From an uncultured Gemmatimonadales bacterium (GTDB taxonomy: Bacteria; Gemmatimonadota; Gemmatimonadetes; Gemmatimonadales; GWC2-71-9), in NCBI GenBank assembly GCA_963841505.1, contig CAWJCZ010000008.1:519175-583174 (forward strand): a stretch of 64,000 bases of DNA. Reading direction: 5' to 3'. The notes below the pieces were generated by a model. That model ran no database searches. It saw only the letters and a program-made list of their open reading frames with translations, and was not told the DNA's origin. Position numbers and translations under genes: made by a program. Below, piece by piece: positions 2,222 to 58,545 of this stretch. The first letter of the stretch is position 1; every line of letters starts with the position of its first letter.

Positions 2222-4710
2222 AACCAGGTGCGGACTCCGAAGGAAACCGTGCGGCCTGGAAGCACGGTCGCGTTGTCGGGCTCGCCGGTCTGGTAGTTGA
2301 GCAGGTTGTCTCCCGACAGGGTGAGGCCGAGGCTGCGGGTCAGGGTGACGGCAACGCTGGCGCGGAGCCGGGTGACGCCGGGGTACTCTTTCCAGAACTC
2401 CCGCAGATTCCAGCCGACGTAGTCCTGGGTGGGACGATTGGTGGTCGCGAACGCCTGGGCCAGCGCGATGCGATCGTAGCTGATCCAGTGGTAGGCCCGA
2501 TACGCCGTGACCGCGGCGTTCCATCGCGCCGCGGAGTAGGACCCGATGACGCTCAGAGTCTGCTGGGGCACTTCCAGCATGCGATTCCCGGCGCGAAGGT
2601 CGCCGGTATAACCCTGCGCCACCTTCCGGACCCGGCTGTCCACCTGGGAGTACGCCCCGGTGAGCCCGAATCCACCGGAGTGCAGGGTGCCCTGAAGCTC
2701 CCATCCCCGATTGGTGATCTCTCCCACGTTCTGAAGCTCGGAGCCGAGCCGGCCGGTGGGCGGACCATCCGGGCGGGGACCCGCGTTCCTCGCGAGCAGT
2801 ACCCGCTGAATGAGCCCGGAGGCGACCTGATCGAACCGGGTGATCTGGAAGCTCGCGGCGCGGCCGATCACCAGATCAACGCCGGCTTCCACTCCCGACT
2901 GTTCCTCCGGCTTCAGGGCCCGGCTGGCTTCGTCGCTGAGGATGCCGTCCCACAGGGTCTGCCGGGCCGGAGCATCGGGCCAGCGGATGCCCTTGCCGTA
3001 GGCGCCGCGCAGCTTGACGCCGACGATCCCGTAATTCCTGGTCCAGGCGAGCCCGGCCATGGGAAGGGTGGCCCAGCGCTCGGTGCTGGTTGCGCCTTCA
3101 TCGCGCTCCAGTCGCACTCCGCCGTTGAAGTGCAGTCCCCCGAACAGCGCGGCGGTGAACTGGGTGGTGAACCCGCTGTTACCGCGCCAGCGGGTGATCT
3201 CCTCGTCGGGGTCGCCGGCTGCGTTCGGCATGATTTCGTAGGGCATGGCGCGCTGCCGGAGCACCGACTGCTCGGCGGAAAATGTCAGGTCGGCGAGCCG
3301 GCGCTCATTGCCCAGCTTGACGACGGTGCTGGCGCGGAGGGTCGCGCGGCTCGCGGACCCTTGCGCACTCGCCAGGGAACCGGCGCCGGTGAGCGGGATG
3401 GGAGTGTGGGGATCGGGGACCCCGCTCAGGCTGTAGCCATCGAGCCCGGCGGTGAAGGTGTGCTGCCAGCGTTCACCCGGAAACACCTTGAGGGTGGCGC
3501 CGGCGGTGTACTCGGCCAGCGATTCGACCCCGGCAAGCGGCTGGGCCGGGACGCTGCTGGTGTCGGAGGCCCGCCAGGGCGCGAGCGTGCGGGTTATGAC
3601 CGGGCTTTCGCCGGTCCCGGCCCGCATCCCGAAGAACCGCAGCGTGCCGGTGAGCAGGCTGGCCTCCCCGACCCGGCGTCCGACCGCGGTGGCGAGGAGC
3701 CGCCGGGAGGACGCGTCGGCAAAGTAGGCGCCGGTCGCGCCGGCGTCGACATCGAGCGATGCCGATTGCAGGTTGGAGCCGGTGCGGAACCTGGCGGCAT
3801 AGGACTGGTCCACCGCAGGGCTCGAGGTGTACTGGCTTCCGGCCAGGCCGATCCCGGCGTCGAAGCGGGCCCGGAGGGAGCTCTCTCCGGTGTCGTATCG
3901 GGAGATGATGTTGGCCACGCCGCTGATGGCGTCGGCGCCATAGAGGGCGGCCCCCTGGGGGCCCCGGATCAGCTCGATGCGGTCGATCGCGCTCGACTGG
4001 ATCCTGGTGAAGAGCAGCGGATTCGCAAGCTGGATCCCGTCGAGATACACCTTGGGGTAGCTCGCTCCGAAGGAGCTGGCGCCCCGGATACTTCCGTACT
4101 GCGACAGCGCGCTGACCGGCGATTGTTCCCACAGCCATAACCCGGGGACCTGGCCGTCCATGGCGGAGGAGAGGGTGGTGGCCCCCCGCTGTTCCAGGGC
4201 CCGTCCGTCGAGCACGTCGAGGGCGATCGGCAGCCCGCTCTGGCTGGCTCCGGCCGGAGAGCCGGTCACCACGATGCGTTCGAGCTCGACCGGCGGGGAT
4301 GGTGGGGTGGTGGCGACCTCCCGGGCGACCGGCGCCAGGACCACGTGGTCGGCGGCCAGGGGCACCAAGCGGAGGGGCAGATCGCCTAACACGCTGGTCA
4401 GGGCATCGCCCAGGGTCACCGCGTCGAACCGGAGGCAGACCCGGCGGTCGAGGGGAACCGCTTCGCCGCTATAGGACAGCCGGATCCGCACCTGCGCGGC
4501 GATCCGGTCGAGGGCCTCGCGCAGGGACACCTCGCGGGCGTGCAGCGAGAGCGTTTTTCCGAGCGGGCCGGTCCACTCCCGTCCGGAAAGCGAGGCGGTG
4601 AGATCGGGACAGGAAGCCGGCGGGGTCCAGGCCAAGGCTCGCGCCGACGACCCGGTCCATCCCCAGACCAGGACGAGCGCCACCGGGAGCGGCCGGAACC
4701 TCCATCTCAT
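2218..4710 (-). CDS. TonB-dependent receptor/transducer with N-terminal STN (secretin/TonB short N-terminal) signalling domain, FecA-like
   Basis: 830-aa ORF. It has a signal peptide, an STN-like block (SLREALDRIAAQVRIRLSYSGEAV...FDAVTLGDALTSVL), a plug (RIVVTGS...) and a beta-barrel ending FGVRTWF. An ATGA start/stop overlap joins it to the fecR-like gene. Confidence 0.9.
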   Translation of the reverse strand: MRWRFRPLPVALVLVWGWTGSSARALAWTPPASCPDLTASLSGREWTGPLGKTLSLHAREVSLREALDRIAAQVRIRLSYSGEAVPLDRRVCLRFDAVTLGDALTSVLGDLPLRLVPLAADHVVLAPVAREVATTPPSPPVELERIVVTGSPAGASQSGLPIALDVLDGRALEQRGATTLSSAMDGQVPGLWLWEQSPVSALSQYGSIRGASSFGASYPKVYLDGIQLANPLLFTRIQSSAIDRIELIRGPQGAALYGADAISGVANIISRYDTGESSLRARFDAGIGLAGSQYTSSPAVDQSYAARFRTGSNLQSASLDVDAGATGAYFADASSRRLLATAVGRRVGEASLLTGTLRFFGMRAGTGESPVITRTLAPWRASDTSSVPAQPLAGVESLAEYTAGATLKVFPGERWQHTFTAGLDGYSLSGVPDPHTPIPLTGAGSLASAQGSASRATLRASTVVKLGNERRLADLTFSAEQSVLRQRAMPYEIMPNAAGDPDEEITRWRGNSGFTTQFTAALFGGLHFNGGVRLERDEGATSTERWATLPMAGLAWTRNYGIVGVKLRGAYGKGIRWPDAPARQTLWDGILSDEASRALKPEEQSGVEAGVDLVIGRAASFQITRFDQVASGLIQRVLLARNAGPRPDGPPTGRLGSELQNVGEITNRGWELQGTLHSGGFGLTGAYSQVDSRVRKVAQGYTGDLRAGNRMLEVPQQTLSVIGSYSAARWNAAVTAYRAYHWISYDRIALAQAFATTNRPTQDYVGWNLREFWKEYPGVTRLRASVAVTLTRSLGLTLSGDNLLNYQTGEPDNATVLPGRTVSFGVRTWF

Positions 4711-5714
4711 CGATTAGGGGGATGCCGGGCAGGCGGAGCGGGTCGCACCACGGCCGTGTCTCCTTTTCGTTCGATCGAAGCACCGAGGGCGAGCCGGAGC
4801 ACTTCGAGGACCTGGTCGCGCGATTCCCTGGAGAAGCGCGCCGAAACGTGCCGGCCGACCAGGCTGGAATCGGCGAGGACGAGCTCGAGACCAAACCAGC
4901 GATGCAGATCTTCCCGAACCCGGCTCATCGGCGCGTTGTCGAAGATCAGCTGGCCGGTGAGCCAGGCCAGATCGGCTTCGTTGCGCTGCCCGGGGACCGG
5001 AGTGGCCTGCCGGGCGCCCAGGGTTCCCACTTCACCCGGCTTGAGGGTGAGGGTTCGCCGGGTCCGGCGCACGGTATCCTGCAACTCGACCGAGCCGGAC
5101 TCCACCATCACCCGGACCTCCTCGCTGCCGGTGTGAACCGTGAACCGGGTCCCGAGGTCGACGATTTCGGCCGCTCCGGCTCGGACCACGAACCGGTGGG
5201 TCGCATCGTGCGGGACGTCGAACATGGCCTGGCCCTGGAGGGTGACCACCCGATCGGGGAGGCCATAACCCGCGATGACGTCGAGCCGGCTGCCGGGGCC
5301 GAGCACCGCGGTGGTGCCGTCGGCGAGACGAATGGAGTCGGTCTGTCCCACCCCGGTGGTGAAGCTGGTCGGGTCCTGGTGGGGAGGAGCGGTGCGGACC
5401 ACCCGCCAGATCAGGGTGGCGCCGGCGACGAGCACGAGGGCGGCGGCAAGCCGTCCCCAGGTGAAGGCGCGCTGGCGGGAGGGGAGGTCAATGACCCTGG
5501 CTTCGCCGAACCGGGCCTTGACCCGCTGCAGGGCGGCCTCGACATCGACGGCGGGATCGGCTTCGGTGCCCCGCTCGAGCGAGGCCAGGAACGGGCCAAG
5601 GGATGGATCGGTCTCGGCCCAGTCGCGGACCTGCGCCTTCTCCTCGGCAGAGGCCTCCCCGGCCGCGTGGCGTCCCAGGACGATCCAGTCGTTTTCGGTG
5701 GTTGGCTGCCTCAT
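4707..5714 (-). CDS. FecR-family anti-sigma factor / transmembrane sensor
   Basis: 335-aa ORF. It has an N-terminal anti-sigma region (AAGEASAEEKAQVRDWAETDP), a single TM segment (LAAALVLVAGATLIW) and a FecR periplasmic domain. It is translationally coupled to the TonB transducer. Confidence 0.85.
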   Translation of the reverse strand: MRQPTTENDWIVLGRHAAGEASAEEKAQVRDWAETDPSLGPFLASLERGTEADPAVDVEAALQRVKARFGEARVIDLPSRQRAFTWGRLAAALVLVAGATLIWRVVRTAPPHQDPTSFTTGVGQTDSIRLADGTTAVLGPGSRLDVIAGYGLPDRVVTLQGQAMFDVPHDATHRFVVRAGAAEIVDLGTRFTVHTGSEEVRVMVESGSVELQDTVRRTRRTLTLKPGEVGTLGARQATPVPGQRNEADLAWLTGQLIFDNAPMSRVREDLHRWFGLELVLADSSLVGRHVSARFSRESRDQVLEVLRLALGASIERKGDTAVVRPAPPARHPPNR

Positions 5715-6433: not shown

Positions 6434-7352
6434 ATGGGTATCCCTCGACTGATCGTCGCCGCGATCCTTCCCCTCGCGGCGGCCTGCTCGCTGACCACCG
6501 ATAGCACGGATTCGACCGAGCTGCTCGCCGCGTTTCAATCGGCTCCCTACGGCATGAGCAATGTGTCGAGCACTTTCGCCACCAGCGCCGACCAGGAGGG
6601 CACGGCGTGGGCGCCTCCCGGCCGGCCGGGCCACGAATTCGGCCCGCGGCGGTCCGGCGGGTGGTCCGATGGGGTTCATGATGGGAGGGCTGGGAGGCGG
6701 ATTCTTCGGCGGCCTGTTCGGCCCCCATTTCGGGAATCGTCCGGTGAGCGAAGACGGCGATGGCGGCGCCTGCGGCTTCAACAGCGGCAGCGGGCGAGTG
6801 GAGTGCGGGCCGGTGACCCGGGGTGGTCTCACCATCACCCGTTCGGCCCAGTACCTGGACGGAGCGGGCCAGGTGCAGAGCGGCTTCGACAATCAGACCA
6901 CGAACTCCATTAACACGCAGATCTCGGTCACCGGGACGATCACCCGGCGGGACAATGCCAGCACCGACGTGGACGCCTACAGCGACCGCACCGTCACCGG
7001 ACTCGCGGCCGGCAGCACCCAGCGCACCGTGAACGGCACCTCGCGGGGCCACGAGCTGACCACCGGCACCGACCGGACCGGCGATTTCACGGCGGAGCGA
7101 CTGGCCGGGGATACGGTCCAGAACGTGGTGATTCCGGTGGTGGGCGACGGGCGACCCGCGCTCCCCAGCGCCGGGACGATCATCCGGTCCATGATGGTCA
7201 CGGTGACCTACACCGGCTCCGACCCCCGCACCCTAACCCGGCGCGAGGTGGTCACCTTCACCGGCAACGGCGGGGCCACGATCACCATCACCCACAACGG
7301 CGAAACCAGGACCTGCACTCTCGCTCCCGACGCGCGGCCGAGCTGCTCCTAG
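6434..7352 (+). pseudogene. Secreted Gly-rich lipoprotein, reading frame broken once (about 6630-6665)
   Basis: The lipoprotein signal MGIPRLIVAAILPLAAACS (ATG 6434, GGAG upstream) is in the frame of ORF 6356..6913. That frame degenerates into Arg-rich nonsense. Coding-like sequence (GGPMGFMMGGLGGGFFGGLFGPHFGN...TVTYTGSDPRTLTRREVVTFTGNGGATITITHNGETRTC) continues in the frame of ORF 6561..7352. Confidence 0.55.
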
Positions 7353-9688
7353 GGCCGGGGCGCGAGCCGTCGGTGGAAGGACTGCACCGGAAGGAAGGCC
7401 TCCTCCCAGAGCTGCTCGAGGCGTTCGGCGAGGTCCGGGAGATCGAGGGGAAGCAGGGCCAGGGCCAGCTCGAGGCGATGCTGGCCCGGCTCCTGGGCCT
7501 CGGGCGTCGGGACCGGCCAGGCGGCGTGTCCGGGGCGCTCGGGCAGCCCGTCGCGGGTTAACTCTCCCACCCCCCGAAGGACGCTGATCAGCAGCACGCC
7601 GTGCGGGGTCCACTCGTACTCGAAGAACCCGGGAGCGAACACCGCGAGCACCCCCGCCGGTCCCTGGGCCGCGACAAAGCGCTGGGCCGGCGCGGTCTTC
7701 ACCTCCCGCTCGATGGCGGCGACCGGCGGGGCCTCCGGCACCGGGGCAGTCAGGTCCAGCCCGACCGTGCCGCCCGCGATCACCTTGCCCCGTCCTGCCG
7801 GGAAAGCCAGCCGGAGCCGGTGATCCGGCCCGGGATTCTGGAGGTCGATCCGCACGGTGAGCAGGGACGAGCCCGCTTGGAGCGCGGTCACCATGCGGGC
7901 GTCGAGGCGGCCGGACGGCAGGCGCACCGACCAGCGGGTTTCCAGCGCGCCGATGAGGCTTCCATTCGCGTGGATGGCCTGCCCGAGGGGCGAGATGGTT
8001 CCCTGCTGGGGCGACCCACCGGGCGAACAGGTGTAGAGATCGCCCTGGTCGGGCTCATCCACGAAGCGGAGCAGCCCTGCGAGGCTGGTTCCGGTGGTGC
8101 GGTCGGCCAGGGTGATGGACCCTTCGGGACTGGTTCGAGCCGCCACCAGCTCGTTCGAGATGGTATCGGGCGCCGAGACGAGGAGCGGCCCGTCGGCCGG
8201 GTCCGGGCTGGGAACCACCTGGAGGGTCGCCAGGCCTAACCCGGGAAGCTTCGGGGCGCGGACCGCGATCCAGACCCGGTCCACTTCGTCCTGGTCGGGG
8301 TAGCGATGGAGATCGTCGCGCCGTTCCTGGTCCCGGCGGACGGCGAGAACCTGGACCGGCAGCACCTGGCCGCCCGCGGTTCTGAGCCCGAACGGTGCGG
8401 CCCCCACCCCGGTCCGGGGAGTCCGGCCGTCCGGGGCGCCGACCAGAATATCCCGGCGAAAAAATGTGAGCATCGCGGTCACCACGCCGGCCCGTTTTCG
8501 TTTGACCGGATTCCACAACAGCAGGCGGCCTTCCGCGCCACCGGCGTCGTCTCCCGCGTCGAGCAGAGTGTTCACCGCCGCCTGGACCACCTCACGGCTG
8601 ATCGTGTTCACCGCCCGAATCCGGAGCGCCTGCTCCTGCTGGGCCTCGTCGCAGGTGGTTCCGGCGAGGGTGTCATGGAACTGGGATTGGAGCAGAATTT
8701 TCCAGGCCTGGTCCAGCGCGGGCGAGCGTCCCCCACCCCGGATCCGCGCGTCGAGCGGCTCCGCCACCCGGGCCAGCCGGAGCTCGGCGGCGCCGTGGGC
8801 GGCCTTGAGCCGGGCTCGCGCCGAGTGGGTGTCCTGGAGGTCCCAGGTGTAGCCGCGGCTCCGGCGAAGCGACCCGCGGATGACCGGCGCGACGGGCGGC
8901 TCACCCTCGACGGCATCGAAGTACTCCCCTAACCCGCTGATCCGGACCGCCCCCCCGGGCTCCAGCGCGGCCAGCCGGTCGCGGAGGACCGACACCCGGG
9001 GCACCATGGCGTGGTGGTCGGCGCCGAGAAACACCGCGAGATGGGGAGTCGAGGCGCGATCGATGAGCTGCTGCCGGATCCGCCGCCATTCGGTCGGCAG
9101 CGCCGGGCTTCCGGCGAGCCCGATGGCGTCGTCGTAGCCGGCCGGGGGAAGCTGGTGGGTCAGCAGGCTGGCCCCATCGGGCGACTCCCACCGGTAGAAG
9201 TCGCCGGGTCGCCCGAGGCCGCGCCGGATCACCGCGCGCCGAAACCCGAGCTCGGCGGCAATGGCGGGGAGCGCCGCGGGATGACCGAAGGCATCGGGAC
9301 TGTAGAGCACGTCGAGACACTTGCCGAATCGTTCGGCCGCCCGGCGGCCTTCGATCAGGTTGCGGCGGATGGAATGGGCCGAGGGCACCAGCAGGTCGGC
9401 CAGCACGTACCACGGCCCGATCTCGAGCGCGCCGCGTTCCACCTGGGCCCGGATCCGCGGCTCCTGCTCGGGACGAATGGCCAGGTAGTCCTCGAGCAGG
9501 ATGGTCTGCCCGTCCAGCAGGAACCGGGCATCGGGATCCGCCTCGAGCTGGTCGAGCACCTGGTCCAGCACCGGGACCAGGCGGGTCTGGAAAGCGGCCC
9601 GCGGCAAATACCACTCGCGGTCCCAGTGGGTGTGGGGAATGAGATGGAAGGTGTAGCCGGACGGGCGGACGGGCGGACCGGCGGACAG
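7349..9688 (-). CDS. Glycoside hydrolase family 38 (alpha-mannosidase-like)
   Basis: The track ORF 7349..9607 starts at TTG. It shows GH38 N-domain features (LLDGQTILLEDYL, EIGPWYVLAD, SPDAFGHP). The conserved GH38 metal-site motif HLIPHTHWDREWY is encoded in frame just upstream (9608-9649) of that TTG. I therefore extend to the only near-cognate start, CTG 9686-9688; the start is uncertain. Confidence 0.8.
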   Translation of the reverse strand: MSAGPPVRPSGYTFHLIPHTHWDREWYLPRAAFQTRLVPVLDQVLDQLEADPDARFLLDGQTILLEDYLAIRPEQEPRIRAQVERGALEIGPWYVLADLLVPSAHSIRRNLIEGRRAAERFGKCLDVLYSPDAFGHPAALPAIAAELGFRRAVIRRGLGRPGDFYRWESPDGASLLTHQLPPAGYDDAIGLAGSPALPTEWRRIRQQLIDRASTPHLAVFLGADHHAMVPRVSVLRDRLAALEPGGAVRISGLGEYFDAVEGEPPVAPVIRGSLRRSRGYTWDLQDTHSARARLKAAHGAAELRLARVAEPLDARIRGGGRSPALDQAWKILLQSQFHDTLAGTTCDEAQQEQALRIRAVNTISREVVQAAVNTLLDAGDDAGGAEGRLLLWNPVKRKRAGVVTAMLTFFRRDILVGAPDGRTPRTGVGAAPFGLRTAGGQVLPVQVLAVRRDQERRDDLHRYPDQDEVDRVWIAVRAPKLPGLGLATLQVVPSPDPADGPLLVSAPDTISNELVAARTSPEGSITLADRTTGTSLAGLLRFVDEPDQGDLYTCSPGGSPQQGTISPLGQAIHANGSLIGALETRWSVRLPSGRLDARMVTALQAGSSLLTVRIDLQNPGPDHRLRLAFPAGRGKVIAGGTVGLDLTAPVPEAPPVAAIEREVKTAPAQRFVAAQGPAGVLAVFAPGFFEYEWTPHGVLLISVLRGVGELTRDGLPERPGHAAWPVPTPEAQEPGQHRLELALALLPLDLPDLAERLEQLWEEAFLPVQSFHRRLAPRP

Positions 9689-9694: not shown

Positions 9695-11077
9695 TATTCC
9701 GCCAAGATGGAGAGCGGCCCGCGCTCTTCAGGGCGTAGGGCGGCCGGATGTCCTAACACGCGGCGGACCAGGTCGGTCCACCAGTCGCCCGGAGGCTCTC
9801 CGGTCCGATACCGCTCCAGCATCGGCCAGGTCTTGTCATGAATCGCTTCGCCCCGGGCCAGCGCGTCCTCCGGGTCGATCCTCTTCGTGCCGCAGCCAGC
9901 GGCGGCCGATCTGGGCGTGCAGGACTTCGTCGGCCCAGTCGTAGTCGTGGAAGTGGGCCGACAGATCATCGCCTGCCTCGACCGCGGTCCGGTATTCGAA
10001 TCGCTTCCCGGTCTCCCCCGGCATGAGCGACTGCTCGATGGCGAAGAGCAGGATCTGTCGCTCGAGCGGTGTGGCGTGGAGGTTGAGCCGGAGCGCAAAC
10101 CCGACGTTGAGCGGGATCCCGGTCCAGTCCACCCCGCGGGCCTCGAGCGCGACGCTGCCCATCATGGCGTGGCGGGTTTCGTCCCAGAGCTGCCGCGAGT
10201 AATCGAGCTGAAACTCCCAGGGCTGCTCGGGACGCTCCACCAGAATGGAGGCCATCATCTCGGGGACGTCCATTTCCAGGGTGCGCTTGGCGAGCAGGGC
10301 GAGGTTCCGCTCGTCGGCCGGCACCCGGGCATCGTTGTAGATCACGTGCGGGGGAAAATCGAACGCGTACTGTCCGGTAAACCGGTGGTCCCGCCGGGGA
10401 TGAAAGTCCGGGATGAACGGTTGTCGTGCCCGCGGGGCCGGAAGCTCCGCCGTCGGTGCGGAAGCCGGACCGGCGATGCCTCCCGCCGCATCGAGCCAGG
10501 CGCGGAGATGGTCCTGCCACTCCGTAACGACCGTGGCCTTGGGTCGATCCGCTCCGGTGAGGGCCGAGAGCGCCTGACGGCTCCACCCGAGCGCCGCCTC
10601 ATGATCCAGCAGCGCGGCCTGGAGAATGCGCCGGGTCGGCTGATCAACCAGCGGGTTACTCCGGGCCAGATGGTCGCGATACGCCGCGGCGAGGGCCTCC
10701 CGCAGCACCTGGTAGCTGCCCGCGAGGAGCTCGACATGGTCGGCGCTCCACAGAGCTTCCGCGAGCGCGCGGTCGAGGGATTCGTCCGGGGCGTGATCGA
10801 GTGGAGGAAGGGGATGCCGCATCTCGCCGATTCTCCGACGGAGGGCATCGGCGTGCAGACCGTCCTGCCACTGGTGCAGCGCGAAGCCACACTTGAGCTC
10901 CCACACGGGTTCCGCGGTCAGGTGCGACAGCAGGTCGCGCATCAACCACCGCTCGACCCACTGATAGCGGAGCAGGCGACGAACGGTCTCCTCCACCGCG
11001 AAGCCGATCCGGGCCGCGTCCTGATAGGAAGCGAGGCCGGCCAGCGGTGGAACGCCAAGGGACGGCGCTGCGCTCAT
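9694..11077 (-). pseudogene. Ferritin-like (putative di-iron) domain protein, reading frame broken once near 9870-9900
   Basis: ORF 9836..11077 (LWDETRHAMMGS..., FHDYDWADEVLHAQIGRRWL) ends in Arg/Gly-rich nonsense. ORF 9694..10098 carries a coding-like C-terminus (IDPEDALARGEAIHDKTWPMLERYRTGEPPGDWWTDLVRRVLGHP). The family assignment is weak. Confidence 0.5.
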
Positions 11078-14055
11078 GGCGTGGGACGAGGCTCAGGGCC
11101 GAGCACGGCGGCGAGCTCCGCCTTGACGACATCGAGCTCCTTGCGAAGGACTTCGTATCGCTGCACCGCGTCGCGGCCGACCTTCTGATCGGTGTTCGCC
11201 GTCATGCTGGCGAGGTAGGTGATGTGGGCCTGGAGCCCTGGTTTTCCATAGCGCACCGGTTCGGTGAGCAGCTTGCGGGCGATCGCCTGCACCCGGGCGG
11301 CCGTGTCGGCGGTCGCGCCGGTTGCCCCGCGGGTTCGACTCAGGAATTGCTGGACCCGGGCCACGGTCCGCCCCGCCTCGCCGACCATGCGGCGCATTCG
11401 AAGATTGTGCGCGTATTCCGCGGTCAGATCGGCGACGGTGGTTCCTTCCGCGGGGAGCCGTGGATCGATCCGCACGGTCAGTGGCTCGGTCCTGGTGAAA
11501 TCTCCCACGGTGACACGGACCTGGTATTCGCCCGGGGGCGCCATCACGCCTTCGGAATGGCGGAGATCCCACACGAAGCGGTTGATGCCCGCCACCCTGG
11601 TCACCTGACTCGTAAAGAATCTGCCGAAGCCGAATCCCTGATTCTCTTCGTCATCCCCACCGCCCCGGCCGCGAAAGACGGGCGGAGGCGTGGCGCTGCT
11701 GTAGCTGTTGATCACCGCACCGCCCCGATCGAGAATTTCCACCTTGACCGCTCCATCCGGGATCGCGGGCAGGTAATAATCCACCCTCGGGCCCAGCAGG
11801 GCGGTCGCGGTGCGGGTGTGGTAACCACCGGGCGATGGGAAGAGAGTGATCTCCCCGGGCCGGGTGGCGGCGAGCTGACGCACCGGCGCCAGGTCGTCGA
11901 GGATCCACAGCGCCCGTCCCTGGGTGGCAATGATCAGATCGTTCCGGAACACCCGCACGTCGTTGATGGGCACGTTGGGCAAGTTGAGCTGGAAGGGCTG
12001 CCAGTGGGCCCCGTTGTCGTAGGAAATGAACATGCCGAACTCGGTCCCCGCGTAGAGCAGCCCCTCACGCTCGGGATCCTCCCGGACCACGCGGGTCGGC
12101 CAGTCCGCCGGAATCCCGTTCTTCCCGTCGGTGAGTCGGTTCCAGGTCGCGCCGTAGTCATCGGTGCGATAGAGATAGGGCTGGTAGTCGCCGAGGAGAT
12201 AGCGGTACACGGCGTAGTAGGCGGAGCCCTTCCGGTGCGGGGAGACGTCGATCCAGGCCACTCGCCCGCCGGAAGGAAGGCCCTTCGGGGTGACGTTCTT
12301 CCAGGTCTTCCCGTTGTCGCGGGTCAGGAAGAAGGGACCGTCGTTGGATCCGGTCCAGATCACGCCCGCTTCGTGGGGGGATTCGGTGATCGCGTACAGG
12401 GTGCTGTAGAACTCCTCACCGGTGACGTCCCGGGTGATGGGCTCGCCGCTCGCGCCCTGGCAGCACTCGGGATGGGCGGTGAGGTCGGGCGAGATGGTTT
12501 CCCAGGTCACGCCCTTGTCGCGGGTGCGGTGCACGAACTGCGATCCGTAGTACAGCACGTCGGGATCGTGCGGAGAGGTCGCCATCGGGGACACCCGCTG
12601 GAACCGGAGCATCAGGTCGCTGGCGGGGTTGCCGTAGAGCGATTGCGCTCCTACCCAGTAGTTCCGGGTGTGCCCCGACGTCATGTTCATGACTTCGTAT
12701 TGTCCCTTGCAGGCGCCGTACACGATGTTCGGATTCCGGGGATAGGGCATGATGGGTCCGGTCTCGCACCCCGGTCCGGTATGCCAGTCGCTCAGGTCGA
12801 ACGGATTAGCCACGCTCGAGATGATCAGCGTGGTGTTGTCCTGCTGCGCCCCGTAGATCTGATAGGGAAACAGGGTGTCGGTCCAGACCCCGTAGATCTC
12901 GGCGGTGGCCTGGTTCATCTGGGTGGACCAGGTCTTCCCGCCGTCCAGGGAGACGTTGGCGCCGCCGTCGTTCGACTGGATCAGGGTATTCCCGTCCCTG
13001 GGGTTGACCCAGATGTCGTGGTTGTCTCCGTGCGGGGTGCGGAGTGGCGTCATGGTCCGGCCGCCGTCCACCGACTTGAAGAAACTCTCCGCCCCGGCGT
13101 AGACCACGTCGGCGTTGGTCGGATCCGCGCCGAGGGTGGTGTAGTAGAACGGACGCTGGACCAGCGCGCCCTGCGAATTCATCTGGGCCCAGGACTGTCC
13201 CGCGTCGTCGGAGCGATAGAGTCCCGCGCCGGGTTTGGCCTCGACCAGGGCGTAGATGCGCTGCGGGTTTGCCGCGGTCACCGCGAGATTGCCCTTGCCG
13301 ATCAGGTCGTTGGGCAGGCCGGTGGTAATCCGGGTAAAGTGCTCGCCTCCATCGGTGCTCTTGTAGAAGCCGCCTTCGTGGGAGCCGCTGATGATGGTCC
13401 ACGGTTTTCGCTCGATCCGGTTCATCCAGGCGTACACCACGGCGGGGTTGCCGGGCATGAGCTCGACGTCCATGGCGCCGGTCGAATCCGACACAAACAG
13501 GGTGTTCTTCCAGGTGTTCCCGCCGTCGGTGGTCTTGAAGAGGCCGCGCTCGTGGTTGGGCTTGAAGATGTCGCCGTAGGCGGCTACCCAGACCGTGTTA
13601 GGGTCGGAAGGGTGGATCCGCAGGCCGCCGATCTGGCCCGCGTCATGGAGACCGGCAAAGCTCCACGTCTTGCCGCCATCGGCGCTCCGGTACACCCCCC
13701 GCCCGGTGGAGACGTTGCTCCGGACCCCATCCGATCCGGTGCCCACGTAGATGACGTTGGGGTCGGTTTCGGCGACCGCGATCGCGCCGACCGAGCCCAG
13801 GGGAATCTTCCCGTCCGTGATGGGCTCCCATTTGGCACCACCGTCGGTGGTCCGGAATACCCCGCCGCTCGCGACGCCCATGTAAAACGTCTTGGGCTGG
13901 GACGGCACTCCGGTGACGGCGGTGACCCGGCCGCCGCGCGAAGGGCCCACCAGTCGATAGCTCAACCCTTTGAACAGGGCGCTATCAACCTGGGCAGAGG
14001 CGGTCGAGGCCAGGGAGACGAGACTCAGGAGCGTGAGCGGAAATCGAAAGGACAT
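11074..14055 (-). CDS. Secreted BNR/Asp-box repeat beta-propeller protein (sortilin/VPS10-like, glycosyl-hydrolase-like)
   Basis: The real start is ATG 14055 inside the 1409-aa track ORF. It has the signal peptide MSFRFPLTLLSLVSLASTASAQ and repeated Asp-box motifs (TTDGGAKW, SADGGKTW, TTDGGNTW, STDGGEHF, SDDAGQSW, SVDGGRT, SLDGGKTW, TRDKGVTW, TRDNGKTW, TDDYGATW, SYDNGAHW). Confidence 0.88.
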   Translation of the reverse strand: MSFRFPLTLLSLVSLASTASAQVDSALFKGLSYRLVGPSRGGRVTAVTGVPSQPKTFYMGVASGGVFRTTDGGAKWEPITDGKIPLGSVGAIAVAETDPNVIYVGTGSDGVRSNVSTGRGVYRSADGGKTWSFAGLHDAGQIGGLRIHPSDPNTVWVAAYGDIFKPNHERGLFKTTDGGNTWKNTLFVSDSTGAMDVELMPGNPAVVYAWMNRIERKPWTIISGSHEGGFYKSTDGGEHFTRITTGLPNDLIGKGNLAVTAANPQRIYALVEAKPGAGLYRSDDAGQSWAQMNSQGALVQRPFYYTTLGADPTNADVVYAGAESFFKSVDGGRTMTPLRTPHGDNHDIWVNPRDGNTLIQSNDGGANVSLDGGKTWSTQMNQATAEIYGVWTDTLFPYQIYGAQQDNTTLIISSVANPFDLSDWHTGPGCETGPIMPYPRNPNIVYGACKGQYEVMNMTSGHTRNYWVGAQSLYGNPASDLMLRFQRVSPMATSPHDPDVLYYGSQFVHRTRDKGVTWETISPDLTAHPECCQGASGEPITRDVTGEEFYSTLYAITESPHEAGVIWTGSNDGPFFLTRDNGKTWKNVTPKGLPSGGRVAWIDVSPHRKGSAYYAVYRYLLGDYQPYLYRTDDYGATWNRLTDGKNGIPADWPTRVVREDPEREGLLYAGTEFGMFISYDNGAHWQPFQLNLPNVPINDVRVFRNDLIIATQGRALWILDDLAPVRQLAATRPGEITLFPSPGGYHTRTATALLGPRVDYYLPAIPDGAVKVEILDRGGAVINSYSSATPPPVFRGRGGGDDEENQGFGFGRFFTSQVTRVAGINRFVWDLRHSEGVMAPPGEYQVRVTVGDFTRTEPLTVRIDPRLPAEGTTVADLTAEYAHNLRMRRMVGEAGRTVARVQQFLSRTRGATGATADTAARVQAIARKLLTEPVRYGKPGLQAHITYLASMTANTDQKVGRDAVQRYEVLRKELDVVKAELAAVLGPEPRPTP

Positions 14056-18634: not shown

Positions 18635-18692
18635 TCTACCTCCGTGAAATGGTGTGCGCGTTAATTGGGAGACGCATCGGATGGCTCGCCGC

Positions 18693-48965: not shown

Positions 48966-51403
48966 CCTCGGTCCGCGAAGCCTACGAATCCATGGCGTGG
49001 GGACCGGCGCCCGAGTCGCCCGCGCAGGCGCAGGCGTGGATCGAGCAGCACGGGCGCACGTTCGGGAATTACCTGAACGGCGCCTGGGTGCCCGGGACTT
49101 CCCACTTCGGGGTGATCAACCCCGCCACCAGGGAAGAGCTCGCGCGGGTGGCGGAGGCCGGCAAGGCCGAGGTGGATGCCGCGGTGGCCGCGGCGCGCGC
49201 GGCCCAGAAAGCCTGGTCGGCCCTGGGCGGACACGGACGGGCCCGGTGGCTCTACGCCCTCGCCCGGGAAGTGCAGCGCAACGCGCGGCTCTTCGCGGTG
49301 GTCGAGTCACTCGACAATGGAAAGCCGATCCGGGAATCCCGCGACATCGACATCCCGCTGGTGGCCCGCCACTTCTATTACCATGCCGGGTGGGCCCAGC
49401 TCATGGAGACCGAGCTCGCGGGTTATGAGCCGGTGGGGGTCGTCGGCCAGATCATTCCATGGAATTTCCCCCTGCTCATGCTGGCCTGGAAGATCGCCCC
49501 GGCCCTCGCGACCGGAAACACGGTGGTCCTCAAGCCCGCCGAGTTTACTCCGCTCACCGCGCTGCTCTTTGCCGACTGCTGCCATACCATCGGTCTGCCG
49601 CCCGGGGTGGTGAACATCCTCACCGGCGACGGCACCACCGGTGCCCTGCTGGTCGATCATCCCGGGCTGGACAAGATCGCGTTCACCGGGTCCACCGACG
49701 TGGGCCGGATCATCCGGACCGCGACGGCCGGGAGCGGCAAACGACTGTCGCTCGAGCTGGGCGGCAAGTCGCCCTTCATCGTGTTCGAGGATGCCGATCT
49801 CGACAGCGTGGTCGAGGGCGTGGTGGACGCGATCTGGTTCAACCAGGGCCAGGTCTGCTGCGCCGGCTCCCGGATCCTCGCGCAGGAAGGCATCGCCACC
49901 CGGCTGGTCGAAAAGCTCCGGAATCGCATGGAGACGCTCCGGGTCGGGTCTCCGCTCGACAAATCGGTGGACATCGGGGCGATCGTCGCCCCGGTCCAGC
50001 TCGAGCGGATTGAATCCCTCGTCAAGCAGGGCGTCGAAGAAGGCGCCACCTGCTGGCAGCCCAGCTGGAGCTGCCCCACTGAGGGGCTGTTCTATCCTCC
50101 GACGCTGTTCACCGATGTGGCGCCCGCCGCGACGATCGCGCAGGTCGAGATCTTCGGACCGGTCGTGGTGCTGATGACGTTCCGGACCCCGGGCGAAGCG
50201 GTCGAGATCGCCAACAACACGCGCTATGGCCTCGCGGCCAGCGTGTGGAGCGAGAACCTCAACACCGCGCTCGATGTTGCCCCCGAGCTCAAGGCCGGGA
50301 CCGTGTGGGTCAACTGTACCAACATGTTCGATGCGGCAAGTGGATTCGGCGGATACCGGGAATCCGGGTACGGGCGGGAGGGCGGGCTCGAGGGACTGTG
50401 GGAGTACGTGCGGATGGGAAGATTGGAGGATAGGAAGATGGGAAGAGAGGACGCCCCGCCATCTGCCCATCCTCCTATCCTCCCATCCTCCCGTCCTCCT
50501 ATCCTCCCATCCTCCCATCCTCCTATCCTCCCATCCTCCCATCCTCCCATCCTCCCTCCCATCGACCGCACCCCCAAGCTCTACATCGGCGGGAAGCAGG
50601 TCCGTCCCGATGCGACCTACACCATCCCGATTCACGACAGCGCGGGGAAACTGCTCGCTGAAATACCTCGCGGGAACCGCAAGGATGTCCGGAACGCGGT
50701 GGAAGCCGCGCGTCAGGCGGCATCCTCATGGGGCAAGGCCACCGCGCACACCCGTGCTCAGGTTCTCTACTATTTCGCCGAGAACCTGGCCGTCCGGGAA
50801 AAGGAATTCACCGATCGGCTGGCGTCTTTGGCGGCGCACTCCCCCTTCGCGCCGGCGGCTGAAGTCGCCGGGTCGATCCAGCGCGCCTTCTACTATGCCG
50901 CGTGGGCCGACAAATACGACGGGCGGGTCCACCACACCCCGTTTCGCAATGTGACGCTTGCGATGAACGAGCCGATCGGGGTGCTGGGCCTGGTCGCCCC
51001 GGAGGAGTCGGGACTGCTTGGCTTCCTTTCTCTCGTGCTCCCCGCTATCGCCATGGGCAATACCGTGGTGACGATTCCTTCGAGTCGAGTGCCGGTGCTG
51101 GCCACGGATCTGTACCAGGTATTCGACACCTCGGACGTGCCCGGCGGCGTGATCAACATCGTGACGGGAGCTCGCCAGGAGCTTGTCCCGGTGCTCGCCG
51201 CGCACGACGATGTCGATGGCATCTGGCTGTTCGGATCCCGCGAGGAAGTCACCGAGGTCGAGAAGCTCTCCGCCGGCAACATGAAGCGGACCTGGGCGGA
51301 ATGGGAATCACGCGACTGGTCCGACCCTCACGAGGGGCAGGGCGGGGAATTCCTTCGCGAGGCGACCCAGGTCAAGAACATCTGGGTCCCCTACGGCGCC
51401 TAG
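48962..51403 (+). CDS. Two-domain aldehyde dehydrogenase: a complete ALDH (catalytic Cys) fused through a repeat-encoded Pro-rich linker to an ALDH-like N-terminal/NAD-domain module
   Basis: This is the in-frame part of track ORF 47048..51403, starting MTSVREAYES. Domain 1 has IIPWNFPLLM, ELGGKSP and NQGQVCCAGSR. The linker is ...HPPILPSSRPPILPSSHPPILPSSHPPILPP. Domain 2 (IDRTPKLYIGGKQVRPD...) is ALDH-like but I see no catalytic Cys block. Confidence 0.8.
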   Translation: MTSVREAYESMAWGPAPESPAQAQAWIEQHGRTFGNYLNGAWVPGTSHFGVINPATREELARVAEAGKAEVDAAVAAARAAQKAWSALGGHGRARWLYALAREVQRNARLFAVVESLDNGKPIRESRDIDIPLVARHFYYHAGWAQLMETELAGYEPVGVVGQIIPWNFPLLMLAWKIAPALATGNTVVLKPAEFTPLTALLFADCCHTIGLPPGVVNILTGDGTTGALLVDHPGLDKIAFTGSTDVGRIIRTATAGSGKRLSLELGGKSPFIVFEDADLDSVVEGVVDAIWFNQGQVCCAGSRILAQEGIATRLVEKLRNRMETLRVGSPLDKSVDIGAIVAPVQLERIESLVKQGVEEGATCWQPSWSCPTEGLFYPPTLFTDVAPAATIAQVEIFGPVVVLMTFRTPGEAVEIANNTRYGLAASVWSENLNTALDVAPELKAGTVWVNCTNMFDAASGFGGYRESGYGREGGLEGLWEYVRMGRLEDRKMGREDAPPSAHPPILPSSRPPILPSSHPPILPSSHPPILPPIDRTPKLYIGGKQVRPDATYTIPIHDSAGKLLAEIPRGNRKDVRNAVEAARQAASSWGKATAHTRAQVLYYFAENLAVREKEFTDRLASLAAHSPFAPAAEVAGSIQRAFYYAAWADKYDGRVHHTPFRNVTLAMNEPIGVLGLVAPEESGLLGFLSLVLPAIAMGNTVVTIPSSRVPVLATDLYQVFDTSDVPGGVINIVTGARQELVPVLAAHDDVDGIWLFGSREEVTEVEKLSAGNMKRTWAEWESRDWSDPHEGQGGEFLREATQVKNIWVPYGA
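50412..50555. repeat. Inverted octamer arrays: 5 G-rich units (GGATGGGA AGATTGGA GGATAGGA AGATGGGA AGAGAGGA, 50412-50451), a 16-nt spacer, then 11 C-rich units (YRTCCTCC, 50468-50555)
   Basis: Read directly. The two arms are largely complementary (a 22-nt stretch pairs 20/22). The array lies inside the ALDH reading frame. Confidence 0.9.
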
Positions 51404-55911: not shown

Positions 55912-55912
55912 G

Positions 55913-56884
55913 TCACTGTCCTTTCGGATAGACTCCGAGGATTACGATTTCGTACGGCATTTTCGTCAGGTGCGACGCGCTGTCTCCGGCCGATTCCATC
56001 AGGCGAACCAGGCCATCGAGATTGATCCTGGGCAACCCCCACACGTGAATCCAGGAGCGCGGGGGTAATCCCCGGATCGCGATGTCGGGAGGGCTCCGTC
56101 CAATCAGAACCACCCGGATTGAGTCTTCCAGCACGTTGCCGGAGAAATCCCGAGCCCGCCCGCTCAGGTAGGCTCCATCCTCCCGAACCCGGACCGGCCG
56201 GTCGGTCAGCTCCAGTACGAAATGTACGTCGTTCCAGAGGCCGGCCGAGGTCTCGACCAGGACACTATCGCCCTGGAGGCGGAAGCGTACCTCGGCGTGA
56301 TCGAGATGATCGAAGGCGGAGGACGCGTGGAAGGGGCGATAGCCTTCGACCGGGTGCAGGGTGTATCGGAGGTCGAGGTTGCCGATCGCAATCACCGGGT
56401 GGAGCTCGAACAGGTGGTCGGGATTGGAGGTCTCGAGGCGGGGCATCGGCCCTCCCTGCCGGTGCGGAAGACCGATGGCGTGTTCGGGCCAGTAACGCGG
56501 GACCGCCACCATGCGGACCGGCTTCCGGGTCTTCTCGGCGTTGCGGAGCCGGGCAATCGCGGCGGGAGCTGTCCTGGCGTTGGCGATCTCCGCGACCATC
56601 CGGAGCCCGATGTCGGGTGACCGCCCGGCAATGTGAATGTCGCCATCGAACGCGGCCGGATTCACCATCCGGGCCACCACATCGACCGTGAAATCGGTCT
56701 CCAGGGTGATCCGTTCGCGATTCGATTCCAGAAAAGCCCGGCTGAAGCGGGCCGTCACATGGTTGGGGCCGACCTTCTCGGTGATCTCCTCATGGAGGAT
56801 CAGGGCCTGGCGGACCACCCGGGCGCAAGCGATGGTGGCGGCCCCCAGGGCCGCCACGAGCAGTCGGCAGCTTGGACTCGGCAT
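55913..56884 (-). CDS. Hypothetical secreted protein
   Basis: 323-aa ORF with a signal-like N-terminus (MPSPSCRLLVAALGAATIACA). It is tightly packed upstream of the M28 gene. I recognised no domain. Confidence 0.55.
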   Translation of the reverse strand: MPSPSCRLLVAALGAATIACARVVRQALILHEEITEKVGPNHVTARFSRAFLESNRERITLETDFTVDVVARMVNPAAFDGDIHIAGRSPDIGLRMVAEIANARTAPAAIARLRNAEKTRKPVRMVAVPRYWPEHAIGLPHRQGGPMPRLETSNPDHLFELHPVIAIGNLDLRYTLHPVEGYRPFHASSAFDHLDHAEVRFRLQGDSVLVETSAGLWNDVHFVLELTDRPVRVREDGAYLSGRARDFSGNVLEDSIRVVLIGRSPPDIAIRGLPPRSWIHVWGLPRINLDGLVRLMESAGDSASHLTKMPYEIVILGVYPKGQ

Positions 56885-56973: not shown

Positions 56974-58545
56974 CTAGGCGAGGGCGGCCGGCAGCACCAC
57001 TACATCACGGCCGAGCAGCTTGGCCAGGACGTTTCCTTTGCGAGTCGCTCCCCAGCATTCCAGCGAGAGATCGGCGCCCCGCTGTTTGGGGATCGCCCGG
57101 ATTGTGAGACGCTCGGCAGTGAGCCGGGTGGTCACCCGCTCGACCGCCGAGGTGTGACCGCGATCGAGTCCATCGGCAATCCTGAGCAGGCCGGCCATTC
57201 GTCGGACGATGTCCTGCTCTTCCGGCGGGAGCCGGGTGAGCTCCTCGTGCTTCTTGCTCGGCCCCTTCCGGCGGTGATAACGGCTGATCAGGGCGACCAG
57301 GTACCGGTCTCGCGAGGTAAAACTGAGCCGGTCGGCGTGGAGGATGAGCTGGAAACTGTGCCGGTGATGCTTCCGGTAGCTCACCACCTGGCCGACATCA
57401 TGGAGCAGACAGGCCGCTTCCAGCAATGGCCGCTCCGAGGGATCCGCCCCGATCGCATCGGCGAGGCGGTCGAACAGGATGAGGCCGAGCACTCGCACCT
57501 GCTCCACGTGGCGGCGGTCACCCTGGCAGCGGTCCACGAACTCGCGCATGGCACGGAGCGGATCGGCCCGGGGAGCCGCCTCGCCGATCATGTCGAGCAG
57601 CAGCCCTTCCCGCAGTCCGAACGCGCTCACTGTGAGGTTGCGGGCTTCGACCATGCCGAGCAGCTCGGCGGTGACGGCGAGCCCGGCGAGAATGATGTCG
57701 GCCCGCTGGGGGTTGAGACCGGCCACCCCGCGGCGTCGTTCCACGCTGAGCGAGCAGAGCCACTCGAGGAGCTGCTCGACTTCGGCGGTTTTCACCACTT
57801 CGCCGTGGACCGATTCGGCCGCGATGTCCCGGCGGGACAACACCATCCGGGCGAGGTTGGTAAAGGTGCCGCCCGACCCGATCACGGTGGCATTGCTCCA
57901 TTCCCGCCATCGTCCGGCGCGCTTGAGCTGTTTGCGCACCTTGCGACGCAGCTCGGCGACCTCACGGGTCCGGGATTTTCCCTCGAAGAGGTACTGCTCG
58001 GTCAGCCGGACCGCGCCCATCGGCAGCGACTCGGTCAGCTCGACCAGGCCATTGATGGCGCCGATCAGCTCGAGGCTCCCGCCCCCGATGTCGGCGACCA
58101 GCGCACGCCCGGCCCCCAGCGGGAAATGGTGGGCCACCGACCGCCAGGAGAGCGCGGCTTCGGTCTCCGCGCCGATCACCCGGAGCGGGATGCCCACTTC
58201 CTTCCTAACCCGGTCCACGAAGGCCTTGCCGTTGAGCGCCTCCCGCACCGCCGAAGTCGCCACCGCCGAGAGCCGCCGGACCCCGCGTCGCTCGGCGACT
58301 TCCCGCATCCGGCCCAGGGTCCGGATGGCCCGGGCCATGGCGAATTCGTCCAGGCGCTTGGATTCTGCGAGACCCGACGCGAGACGAGGCTGGTCCTTGA
58401 CCTCGTCGACCACGTTGATGCCGGTCTGGGGATCGTACTCGGCGACCAGCAGGCGGATGGAATTGGAGCCGACGTCGATGGCCGCGAGGCGCTCATCCGG
58501 TTCCGGCGGGCCGGCGGGGAGCGCGGCCATATAGGTACGCCGCAT
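56974..58545 (-). CDS. ppx: Exopolyphosphatase / guanosine pentaphosphate phosphohydrolase (Ppx/GppA) with C-terminal HD domain
   Basis: 523-aa ORF. It has the AAIDVGSNSIRLLVAE phosphate-1 motif, DIGGGSLE and the HD region LLHDVG. A TGATG overlap joins it to phoU. Confidence 0.9.
   Translation of the reverse strand: MRRTYMAALPAGPPEPDERLAAIDVGSNSIRLLVAEYDPQTGINVVDEVKDQPRLASGLAESKRLDEFAMARAIRTLGRMREVAERRGVRRLSAVATSAVREALNGKAFVDRVRKEVGIPLRVIGAETEAALSWRSVAHHFPLGAGRALVADIGGGSLELIGAINGLVELTESLPMGAVRLTEQYLFEGKSRTREVAELRRKVRKQLKRAGRWREWSNATVIGSGGTFTNLARMVLSRRDIAAESVHGEVVKTAEVEQLLEWLCSLSVERRRGVAGLNPQRADIILAGLAVTAELLGMVEARNLTVSAFGLREGLLLDMIGEAAPRADPLRAMREFVDRCQGDRRHVEQVRVLGLILFDRLADAIGADPSERPLLEAACLLHDVGQVVSYRKHHRHSFQLILHADRLSFTSRDRYLVALISRYHRRKGPSKKHEELTRLPPEEQDIVRRMAGLLRIADGLDRGHTSAVERVTTRLTAERLTIRAIPKQRGADLSLECWGATRKGNVLAKLLGRDVVVLPAALA

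Follow-up and report, generated by a model that had tools for sequence, protein, structure and literature searches.

A hyper-abundant DNA word in a narrow clade of Gemmatimonadales and its possible likeness to uptake sequences

Oligomers that are hyper-abundant in a particular lineage are a familiar kind of feature, represented by the uptake signal sequences (USS) of the Pasteurellaceae and the DNA uptake sequences (DUS) of the Neisseriaceae, by Chi sites and by the highly iterated palindrome (HIP1) of the cyanobacteria. To our knowledge, sequence-specific uptake of DNA is known from only two families, both proteobacterial. The HIP1 octamer is a palindrome whose great abundance has no explained function; Chi sites of the AddAB type, in Bacillus and Staphylococcus, contain GCGG; and a wrongly oriented copy of an FtsK-orienting polar sequence (KOPS) misdirects FtsK, so that such copies should be counter-selected. 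With respect to orientation, the known uptake sequences have no genome-wide bias, one orientation being commoner inside genes, and within the genes of Neisseria meningitidis it is the reverse complement of the DUS that predominates (245 versus 123; PMC2346458). Chi is present about once per 5 kb in Escherichia coli, and a Chi sequence is recognized in part by its polarity on the leading strand (PMC8022716). Chi sequences differ among lineages, and KOPS and the SpoIIIE recognition sequences (SRS) have a strand skew of 0.79-0.91 with one copy per 12-22 kb (PMC3384302). Here we describe an oligomer of this general kind, the 9-mer CCTAACNCG, in 64 kb of DNA from an uncultured Gemmatimonadales bacterium (contig CAWJCZ010000008.1; G+C 67%), the whole of which we refer to as the window. 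The kind of feature is already known; the exact word appears to be new.

Compared with the USS of the Pasteurellaceae (AAGTGCGGT / ACAAGCGGT), the word has much in common. Like them, it is a non-palindromic sequence of about 9-10 bp that is hugely over-represented (up to about one USS per kb), that is for the most part intragenic, with a small number of favored frames, and that, apart from a residual plus-strand excess in the window, seems to have no orientation bias at the level of the genome, one orientation being commoner in genes; like them, too, it has sub-clade variants, positions conserved in relatives and a tendency to even spacing. The DUS of the Neisseriaceae (GCCGTCTGAA and its dialects) take distinct forms round a shared core in related lineages, are commoner inside genes as the reverse complement and have conserved copies; the present word shares all of this, its dialects being built round CCTAAC/TAAC (CNTAACCCGC in one lineage, RCCTAACGM in the other). 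Because its enrichment, its density, its occurrence in both orientations, the conservation and turnover of its copies, its restriction to one clade and its dialect all match the known behavior of uptake sequences, our tentative reading is that a hyper-abundant signature word of an uptake-sequence-like kind, specific to the lineage, may be present here and that the 9-mer is its most prominent form.

Abundance and coding contexts of the word

An exact search of the window finds CCTAACNCG 14 times on the plus strand and twice on the minus strand. A preliminary description, made from the letters of this DNA alone, had listed the same 16 coordinates and had stated that nine of these copies are CCTAACCCG, every one of which proves to be on the plus strand. 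Its claim of over-representation is equally well founded: the 16 copies compare with 0.84 +/- 0.97 in 100 dinucleotide-preserving shuffles, both strands combined, with a maximum of 4, and CCTAACCCG, at 9:0 between the strands against 0.19 expected under a third-order Markov model, is the top-scoring 9-mer in an unbiased k-mer survey of the window. In that survey the top 7-mer is TAACCCG, with 19 plus-strand and 7 minus-strand copies against 2.2 and 1.2 expected; the strand excess reported for it earlier was real, although the ratio of 19:6 then given was not exact.

The one-mismatch variants and a logo pooled from 86 sites in the window and its relatives yield a consensus of about 10 bp, C-N-T-A-A-C-[C>A>G]-C-G-[C>G]. 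Outside the word itself the copies share no flanking sequence, the logo positions beyond -2 to +7 carrying no information. For the window clade the word is given as CNTAACCCGC, its complementary strand reads 5'-GCGGGTTAGG-3', and when both strands are to be counted we write the word as CNTAACNCG. The window contains the core TAACNCG 38 times, with a plus-to-minus ratio of 27:11, or once per 1.7 kb (0.59 per kb); 35 of the 38 copies are intragenic and three intergenic. The word is enriched about 20- to 35-fold and, taken broadly, 20- to 100-fold.

Genes were called with a self-trained codon model, and the calls were corrected by means of the Pfam results. Read against these genes, eight copies of the 9-mer take the form xxC GNG TTA GGx, which is [G/A/V]-L-G in the protein, all of them on the plus strand and antisense to their gene. 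They lie in a TonB-dependent receptor gene (4385..4393, CCTAACACG, AGC GTG TTA GGC, S-V-L-G); twice in a GH38 gene (8235..8243, CCTAACCCG, GGG TTA GGC, G-L-G; and 8928..8936, CCTAACCCG, GGG TTA GGG within S-G-L-G-E-Y-F); in an amino-acid permease gene (18177..18185, CCTAACACG, xxC GTG TTA GGG, V-L-G); in a molybdopterin gene of the xanthine dehydrogenase type (20547..20555, CCTAACGCG, GCG TTA GGC, A-L-G); in a CLC channel gene (25561..25569, CCTAACGCG, again GCG TTA GGC, A-L-G); close to the 3' end of an SMP-30/gluconolactonase-like gene (30044..30052, CCTAACCCG, GGG TTA GGA, G-L-G); and in an M14 peptidase gene (43461..43469, CCTAACCCG, GGG TTA GGA, G-L-G). Three more plus-strand, antisense copies of CCTAACCCG read CGG GTT AGG (R-V-R), in an amidohydrolase gene (16630..16638), in the molybdopterin gene that also holds the copy at 20547 (21776..21784) and in ppx (58204..58212). 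Two plus-strand genes carry CCTAACCCG in sense, one copy each: the gene at 6558-7352, as ACC CTA ACC CGG (7232..7240, T-L-T-R), and a cytochrome c gene, as CCT AAC CCG (33047..33055, P-N-P). The remaining copies are a minus-strand CCTAACACG that is sense in a BNR/sortilin-like gene (13594..13602, CCT AAC ACG, P-N-T), a plus-strand CCTAACACG in the intergenic space between the start of the GH38 gene and the gene upstream (9752..9760), and a minus-strand CCTAACGCG that overlaps the TAG stop codon of the plus-strand gene 36505-36987 (36980..36988).

The word thus occurs in at least five contexts of frame and strand, in host proteins that are unrelated to one another (they belong to different Pfam families), and between genes as well. 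It also makes use of codons that are otherwise rare here. TTA accounts for only 18 of the approximately 1490 leucine codons of the minus-strand genes, and 8 of those 18 fall within the word; in X-[GAV]-L-G contexts TTA is chosen 9 times in 46, against a background of 1.2%. When synonymous codons are shuffled within each gene, keeping both the protein and its codon usage, the minus-strand genes are expected to contain 0.19 antisense 9-mers; they contain 11. In the majority orientation, 13 of the 69 peptide contexts that would permit the 9-mer (19%) actually have it. Relative to this codon-shuffle null the majority orientation is enriched about 10-fold and the minority orientation about 3-fold, in plus- and minus-strand genes alike. 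Considering the several frames, the two gene strands, the rare codons, the codon-shuffle excess and the orthologous positions that are kept in relatives (see below), the evidence supports selection or drive that acts on the word as DNA rather than on a motif of the protein. The preliminary description had argued for the same conclusion from copies embedded by rare codons in unrelated genes; its readings as G/V/A-L-G, R-V-R, T-L-T-R and P-N-P agree with ours frame by frame, and the repeated protein motif of uniform frame that it had named as the contrary outcome was not seen.

Relatives and a second dialect

As had been proposed with the preliminary description, the count was repeated in related genomes, whose loci are designated here by L numbers. 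Clade relatives carry the word, often at orthologous positions. L081, which is syntenic with the window over the TonB-FecR-sigma-GH38 genes at 59-83% amino-acid identity, has it, as do the contigs L082, L083/L084 and L147; the density of TAACNCG attains 12 in 8.9 kb in L083 and 13 in 7.8 kb in L084 (1.35-1.66 per kb). Contigs found by means of Ppx add L162 (Ppx 94% identical), which is syntenic with the window from 47 to 64 kb at about 82% DNA identity, as well as L166 (87%) and L163 (82%); in the Ppx-found contigs L164 and L168 (both 82%) and L167 (80%) the word is absent. The contigs of the relatives were assembled independently, from other samples, and come from Logan (L081), the JGI (L082-L084, L147, L163 and L166) and the ENA (L162). 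Across the clade the word has a density of 0.4-1.7 copies per kb, in either orientation, with variant forms: CNTAACCCGC in the window clade and NNTAACCCGC in L081 and L083/L084.

Further afield, 80 loci of other Gemmatimonadota, 1.15 Mb in all, contain the 9-mer 8 times, no more often than chance would give or less often; the word is absent from about 150 other Gemmatimonadota loci, and from about 1.9 Mb of such loci. In a scan of the kinase family in GTDB, the matches listed were mostly orthologues from other Gemmatimonadota, and none among them had the word. The word is confined to a narrow clade of the Gemmatimonadales.

Within that clade its copies are both kept and turned over. Alignments of the window with its relatives show 9 of 19 word copies to be conserved, where about 3.6 would be expected from ordinary 7-mers. 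The copy at 8928 is a case in point: at the orthologous position of L081 (62% amino-acid identity) the same word is present as GGG TTA GGx, again within S-G-L-G-E-Y-F, and the adjacent synonymous sites differ. The receptor copy at 4385 is kept in L081 as an orthologous CCTAACACGCTGG, that at 43461 is kept in L163 and that at 58204 in L162; the copy at 7232 has a likely counterpart in L081, judged by eye, in a variant CATAACCCG near the end of the same gene. Copies are gained and lost where the local peptide permits, S-V-L-G, for example, being used at columns of the TonB receptor that vary from one sub-lineage to another.

When all the loci that were fetched were screened blindly for over-represented words, a second Gemmatimonadales lineage came to light with a word of its own, CCTAACG, for which the logo is RCCTAACGM. 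This lineage B, as we call it, comprises the JGI soil and rhizosphere contigs L086-L089, L092, L094, L099, L102, L108, L140 and L158; its G+C is 66% and its TonB homologue is 45% identical to that of the window. RCCTAACGM has a density of 0.8-1.0 per kb in these loci, where every CCTAAC is followed by G. Its strand counts are equal (8:7 and 7:9), its spacing is more even than random (coefficient of variation 0.53, P=0.013), and it is embedded as xCG TTA GGx, CCT AAC Gxx, xxC CTA ACG and GTT AGG, using TTA, CTA and AGG codons. Two of its genomes, 81% identical to each other, have kept 10 of 11 copies in common, versus 26% of ordinary 7-mers. Most of the other Gemmatimonadota loci have no comparable word, their top words being peptide motifs of kinase/PD40 proteins or tandem repeats.

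Other high-ranked words of the search, GACATCAAG (D-I-K), GACGGCAAG (D-G-K) and TTCTACGT (F-Y-V), are such kinase/PD40 protein motifs and were set aside. The kinase-PD40 family is highly multi-copy in the Gemmatimonadota, and its conserved peptides yield spurious skewed words in k-mer scans. Tandem repeats among the high-ranked words are likewise separate from the signature word; the Gemmatimonadota contig L031, from a metagenome-assembled genome (MAG), has for instance an 8-bp tandem repeat, (GGACGTGA)n, in same-strand arrays at 2343-2390, 8090-8157 and 10757-10819. Another contig, L148 (ERZ777003 NODE-1741; 22.4 kb, 73% GC), contains the palindrome CGACGTCG 30 times against about 4 expected, in the manner of the cyanobacterial HIP1.

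Strand polarity and candidate functions

The raw polarity of the word is striking, at 14:2 for the 9-mer (88%) and 27:11 for the core, and each quarter of the window, taken separately, is biased toward the plus strand. For TAACCCG the plus-to-minus ratio is 6:1 in plus-strand genes and 12:5 in minus-strand genes. However, the minus strand holds 74% of the coding DNA of the window, and peptide contexts that permit an antisense copy are about four times commoner than those that permit a sense copy (586 versus 145 for the core, 87 versus 14 for the 9-mer). The skew of 14:2 arises mainly because the antisense reading fits common peptides ([G/A/V]-L-G and R-V-R) and because minus-strand genes are in the majority in this DNA. 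A pooled test of opportunity gave zero polarity, but it mixes the sense and antisense classes; we have therefore employed a stratified permutation in which the observed copies are redistributed among the permissive contexts inside each context class. By this test the window has 25 of 34 core copies on the plus strand versus 20.3 expected (P=0.044), and 13 of 14 for the 9-mer versus 9.3 expected (P=0.016), neither value being corrected for the fact that the word was chosen post hoc. In the relatives L081, L162 and L163, taken in syntenic orientation, the corresponding figures are 16 of 26 versus 15.8 for the core (P=0.59) and 5 of 9 versus 5.2 for the 9-mer (P=0.82). Raw strand counts of the 9-mer in relatives are 7:5. 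Gene orientation and coding constraints thus account for most of the strand bias, a small real component being possible. More generally, the amino-acid contexts that a word requires can, together with gene orientation, produce a polarity as marked as 14:2, and polarity therefore needs to be tested within strata of gene strand and peptide context.

These results bear on what the preliminary description had made of the polarity. Its count of 14:2 was correct; as a signal at the level of the chromosome, that ratio is mostly explained by gene orientation and peptide contexts. Most genes do lie on the minus strand, as had been said, but the suggestion that this is the leading strand is not borne out, since the markers conflict: gene orientation indicates the minus strand, the GC skew at four-fold sites (+0.024 +/- about 0.011) indicates weakly the plus strand, as does GGGNAGGG (10:5), AT skew gives no indication, and the whole-window GC skew is likewise discordant. 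The proposed resemblance to the KOPS consensus of E. coli holds for a minority only, the preceding C that gives the complement GGTTAGGG being present in 5 of the 14 plus-strand sites and missing from the rest. Finally, the Chi or KOPS reading that was drawn from density, G-richness and polarity finds little support in the form proposed, inasmuch as the polarity is mostly a by-product, the three relatives have no residual polarity, the minority orientation is enriched about 3-fold and the word of lineage B is unpolarized.

Under the uptake-like reading that we favor, a DNA-binding component peculiar to the clade would most likely recognize the word in double-stranded form; fragments that bear the word would be taken up preferentially in natural transformation and then recombined into the chromosome; and new copies, arising by synonymous mutation, would probably spread and be retained in a self-reinforcing process like that of the USS and DUS. 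Both the recognition by a protein and the accumulation driven by uptake are what we infer by analogy. The known uptake sequences are marked by the extreme over-representation of one word of 9-12 bp, at roughly 0.3-1 copies per kb; the present word compares with this in its count in the window and in its densities there, in L083/L084 and in lineage B, and, like those sequences, it takes different forms in related taxa and is absent beyond the group. Inside genes there is the asymmetry between sense and antisense that has been described for both USS and DUS; after coding constraints, the orientation of the word is neutral in the relatives, with a residual plus-strand excess in the window. It is conceivable, and we propose it more guardedly still, that an uncultured soil clade of the Gemmatimonadales possesses sequence-specific uptake based on CNTAACCCGC, with the dialect RCCTAACGM in a sister lineage, which would make this the first uptake-sequence system outside the Proteobacteria, and one recognized solely from its sequence.

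A number of observations weigh against such an uptake function. No component of a competence machinery (type IV pilus, ComEA, ComEC or DprA) and no DNA receptor is found among the genes of the window, which is the only DNA to which that statement applies. Our literature search turned up no report of natural transformation in the Gemmatimonadota, and we know of none. Closely spaced inverted pairs at gene ends (less than 200 bp apart) do not occur in the window, nor does the logo reveal an AT-rich flanking periodicity like that of the Haemophilus USS; the pairs and, in the case of the USS, the AT-rich flanks are typical of the family but are not obligatory for it. The window has 0.4-0.6 copies per kb, fewer than the classic one or so per kb, the copies there are not more evenly spaced than random, and the residual plus-strand excess of the window has also to be placed on this side of the balance. 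In addition, the word is unrelated in sequence to the USS and belongs to a different phylum, the Gemmatimonadota, with DNA of high GC; and whereas the DUS are often intergenic terminators made of inverted repeats, 35 of the 38 core copies here are intragenic and none is paired. As to earlier notice of the word, the literature search found no description of it, or of any hyper-abundant oligomer, in the Gemmatimonadota. The search for the word itself retrieved only papers on telomeres, CCTAACCC being part of (CCCTAA)n, and this we have taken as a coincidence.

Several quite different explanations have to be set beside this one. The word could be the site of some other chromosome-wide factor that has nothing to do with uptake, such as a nucleoid-associated protein of the lineage or a repair system linked to a non-palindromic methyltransferase, comparable to HIP1 (GCGATCGC); a role within the cell would then keep it under selection. 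Like HIP1, the word is hyper-abundant, unexplained in function, situated in coding DNA and more conserved than neutrality would predict; its orientation-neutral enrichment, its conservation, its clade restriction and its even spacing in the dense lineages fit a factor of this sort equally, and the data contain nothing that specifically demands DNA uptake. HIP1 is, however, palindromic and overlaps methylation sites, whereas the word is asymmetric; its sporadic presence in close relatives and its dialect-like drift are better predicted by a self-reinforcing drive than by a housekeeping role; and we know of no precedent, outside the uptake sequences, for a non-palindromic 9-10-mer of this kind, which we count against a factor of that sort. 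On balance we find it somewhat unlikely. Alternatively, GCGGGTTAGG might be a Chi-like signal, recognized in single-stranded DNA by the RecBCD or AddAB of the clade and kept frequent by selection. A Chi sequence is short, over-represented and lineage-variable (PMC3384302), with one copy per few kb, and the density of the word (one per 1.7-4 kb) is like that of known Chi sites. Enrichment in both orientations is also compatible: both would be useful at two-ended breaks, the modest excess of one of them facing the breaks at replication forks, and the window does have a residual strand excess after coding correction (the P values of 0.016 and 0.044 above). GCGG, which is found in the AddAB-type sites of Bacillus and Staphylococcus, is present in the complement of the word too. 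Nevertheless, when gene strand and codon constraints are allowed for, L081, L162 and L163 do not have the polarity expected from replication, and it is missing from lineage B. Close relatives, with Ppx 80-82% identical, are without any comparable word. An enrichment of 20- to 100-fold, one to two orders of magnitude above that of Chi in E. coli, with local densities up to 1.7 per kb, would be unusual, and the four-fold GC skew, in a region where the strand markers conflict, weakly places the C-rich reading on the leading strand. The word fits Chi less well than it fits the uptake sequences, and we regard the Chi-like signal, including the version with fork-facing breaks, as unlikely.

Two further explanations have very little probability. 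If the word were an FtsK/SpoIIIE-orienting polar sequence (KOPS, SRS or the architecture-imparting sequences, AIMS), it would steer the translocase to dif. Sequences of this family have a leading-strand skew of at least about 75-90%, with the reverse orientation counter-selected; their skew and frequency increase toward dif, and they are conserved along with the gamma domain of FtsK. The length of the word is suitable, its complement is G/T-rich and the raw 9-mer skew of 88% falls inside the range for KOPS (0.79-0.91; PMC3384302). About two thirds of that skew is nevertheless expected from gene orientation and coding constraints; the relatives, at 7:5 for the 9-mer and 16 of 26 against 15.8 expected for the intragenic core, have no such skew; the opposite orientation is enriched about 3-fold, not avoided; and the word does not extend beyond a narrow clade, although close relatives that lack it have chromosomes to segregate as well. 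It is also unlike a purine-rich octamer of the GGGNAGGG type, GGGNAGGG itself being 10:5 on the other strand. The word fits KOPS and SRS poorly, and we give an orienting function almost no credence. Less credible yet is the absence of any DNA-level function, the word being then a protein motif, a matter of chance or an artefact of sequencing or assembly, for instance through methylation-induced errors in long reads. The source does look like a long-read MAG, and one gene of the window is broken by frameshifts. On the other side stand the five or more contexts of frame and strand, the unrelated proteins and the intergenic copies; none of the 100 shuffles reaches even 5 copies; and the same word recurs, partly at orthologous positions, in contigs assembled independently by Logan, the JGI and the ENA. 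These contigs, from other samples and sources, rule out long-read methylation errors as the origin of the word.

If the uptake-like reading is right, there would be natural transformation with self-recognition in a phylum that has no described competence, and a third, unrelated example of sequence-specific uptake would be available, in a phylum that is abundant in soil and barely cultured. How uptake words arise, form dialects and shape the barriers to recombination is still debated, and the word would provide an independent system for models of molecular drive versus selection, with gain and loss at permissive codons, densities from 0 to 1.7 per kb among close relatives and a second dialect in a neighboring lineage. 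In practical terms, the word would serve as a marker in the binning of metagenomes and the tracking of gene flow. Should the word prove to be Chi-like instead, the Gemmatimonadota would have their first candidate for a recombination signal.

Core-only copies and the genes of the window

The copies that have the core only are scattered over the whole window, from CGTAACCCG at 134..140 (plus) to TGTAACCCGG at 61817..61823 (plus). In its first quarter there are TCATAACCCGCA at 3590..3596 (minus), which is sense in the TonB receptor gene (I-T-R), CATAACCCG at 4138..4144 (plus), CATAACCCGCG at 5266..5272 (plus) in the FecR gene, with apparent orthologous copies in L081 and L083 (by eye), TTAACACG at 6911..6917 (plus), GTTAACCCGCG at 7554..7560 (minus) and AGTAACCCGCT at 10652..10658 (minus). 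Farther along are CATAACGCG at 17973..17979 (plus), TTAACGCG at 18657..18663 (minus), two copies in plus-strand genes (CGTAACCCG at 22672..22678 and GCTAACCCG at 23386..23392, both plus) and CGTAACCCGCT, first at 28943..28949 (minus) in a sulfatase gene and then at 38334..38340 (plus). Between and after these come GTTAACCCGCA at 37736..37742 (minus), CATAACCCGG at 38939..38945 (minus, intergenic) and GGTAACACGCT at 43205..43211 (minus), the last in the M14 peptidase gene and kept in L163. The remainder are TCATAACCCGCA at 46546..46552 (plus) and again at 47683..47689 (plus), the latter sense in a rhomboid gene with an ATA codon; TCATAACCCGCG at 48481..48487 (plus), sense in a DeoC-family gene, and at 49419..49425 (minus); and AGTAACGCGG at 56493..56499 (plus). 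The copies at 47683, 48481 and 49419 are all kept in L162.

A longer sub-variant with 11 fixed bases, TCATAACCCGC[A/G], occurs five times among these copies, at 46546, 47683 and 48481 on the plus strand and at 3590 and 49419 on the minus strand. In sense it reads [I/F/V]-I-T-R with the rare ATA codon, and 3 of the 5 copies are kept in L162.

The genes of the window include a TonB receptor/FecR/ECF sigma set, a GH38 mannosidase, two Ser/Thr kinase-PD40 proteins and a pst-phoU-ppx cluster, among others, and their best database matches are to uncultured Gemmatimonadales. The two kinase-PD40 proteins (33802-36387 and 39025-41730, both minus) are paralogous beta-propeller proteins, 41% identical, with a PD40-only protein encoded between them. 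Not every long frame here is a gene: of the open frame of 1842 codons at 19517-25045 (minus), no more than the final 830 codons or so, with the molybdopterin-binding domains, are real, and its upstream part overlaps plus-strand genes. Long open reading frames in DNA of 67% GC need not be genes. A dehydrogenase dependent on pyrroloquinoline quinone (PQQ), at 31101-32908 (plus), is spread over at least three successive open reading frames that differ in frame, the Pfam PQQ profile matching with its positions 1-205 in 31230-32006 and 537-590 in 32231-32908; either this is a pseudogene or the long-read assembly contains indel errors. Finally, two tandem genes for PstB-like ABC ATPases (59228-60043 and 60040-60930, both minus) adjoin phoU and ppx, and the duplication is kept in all the relatives that were examined for it (L162-L164 and L166-L168).

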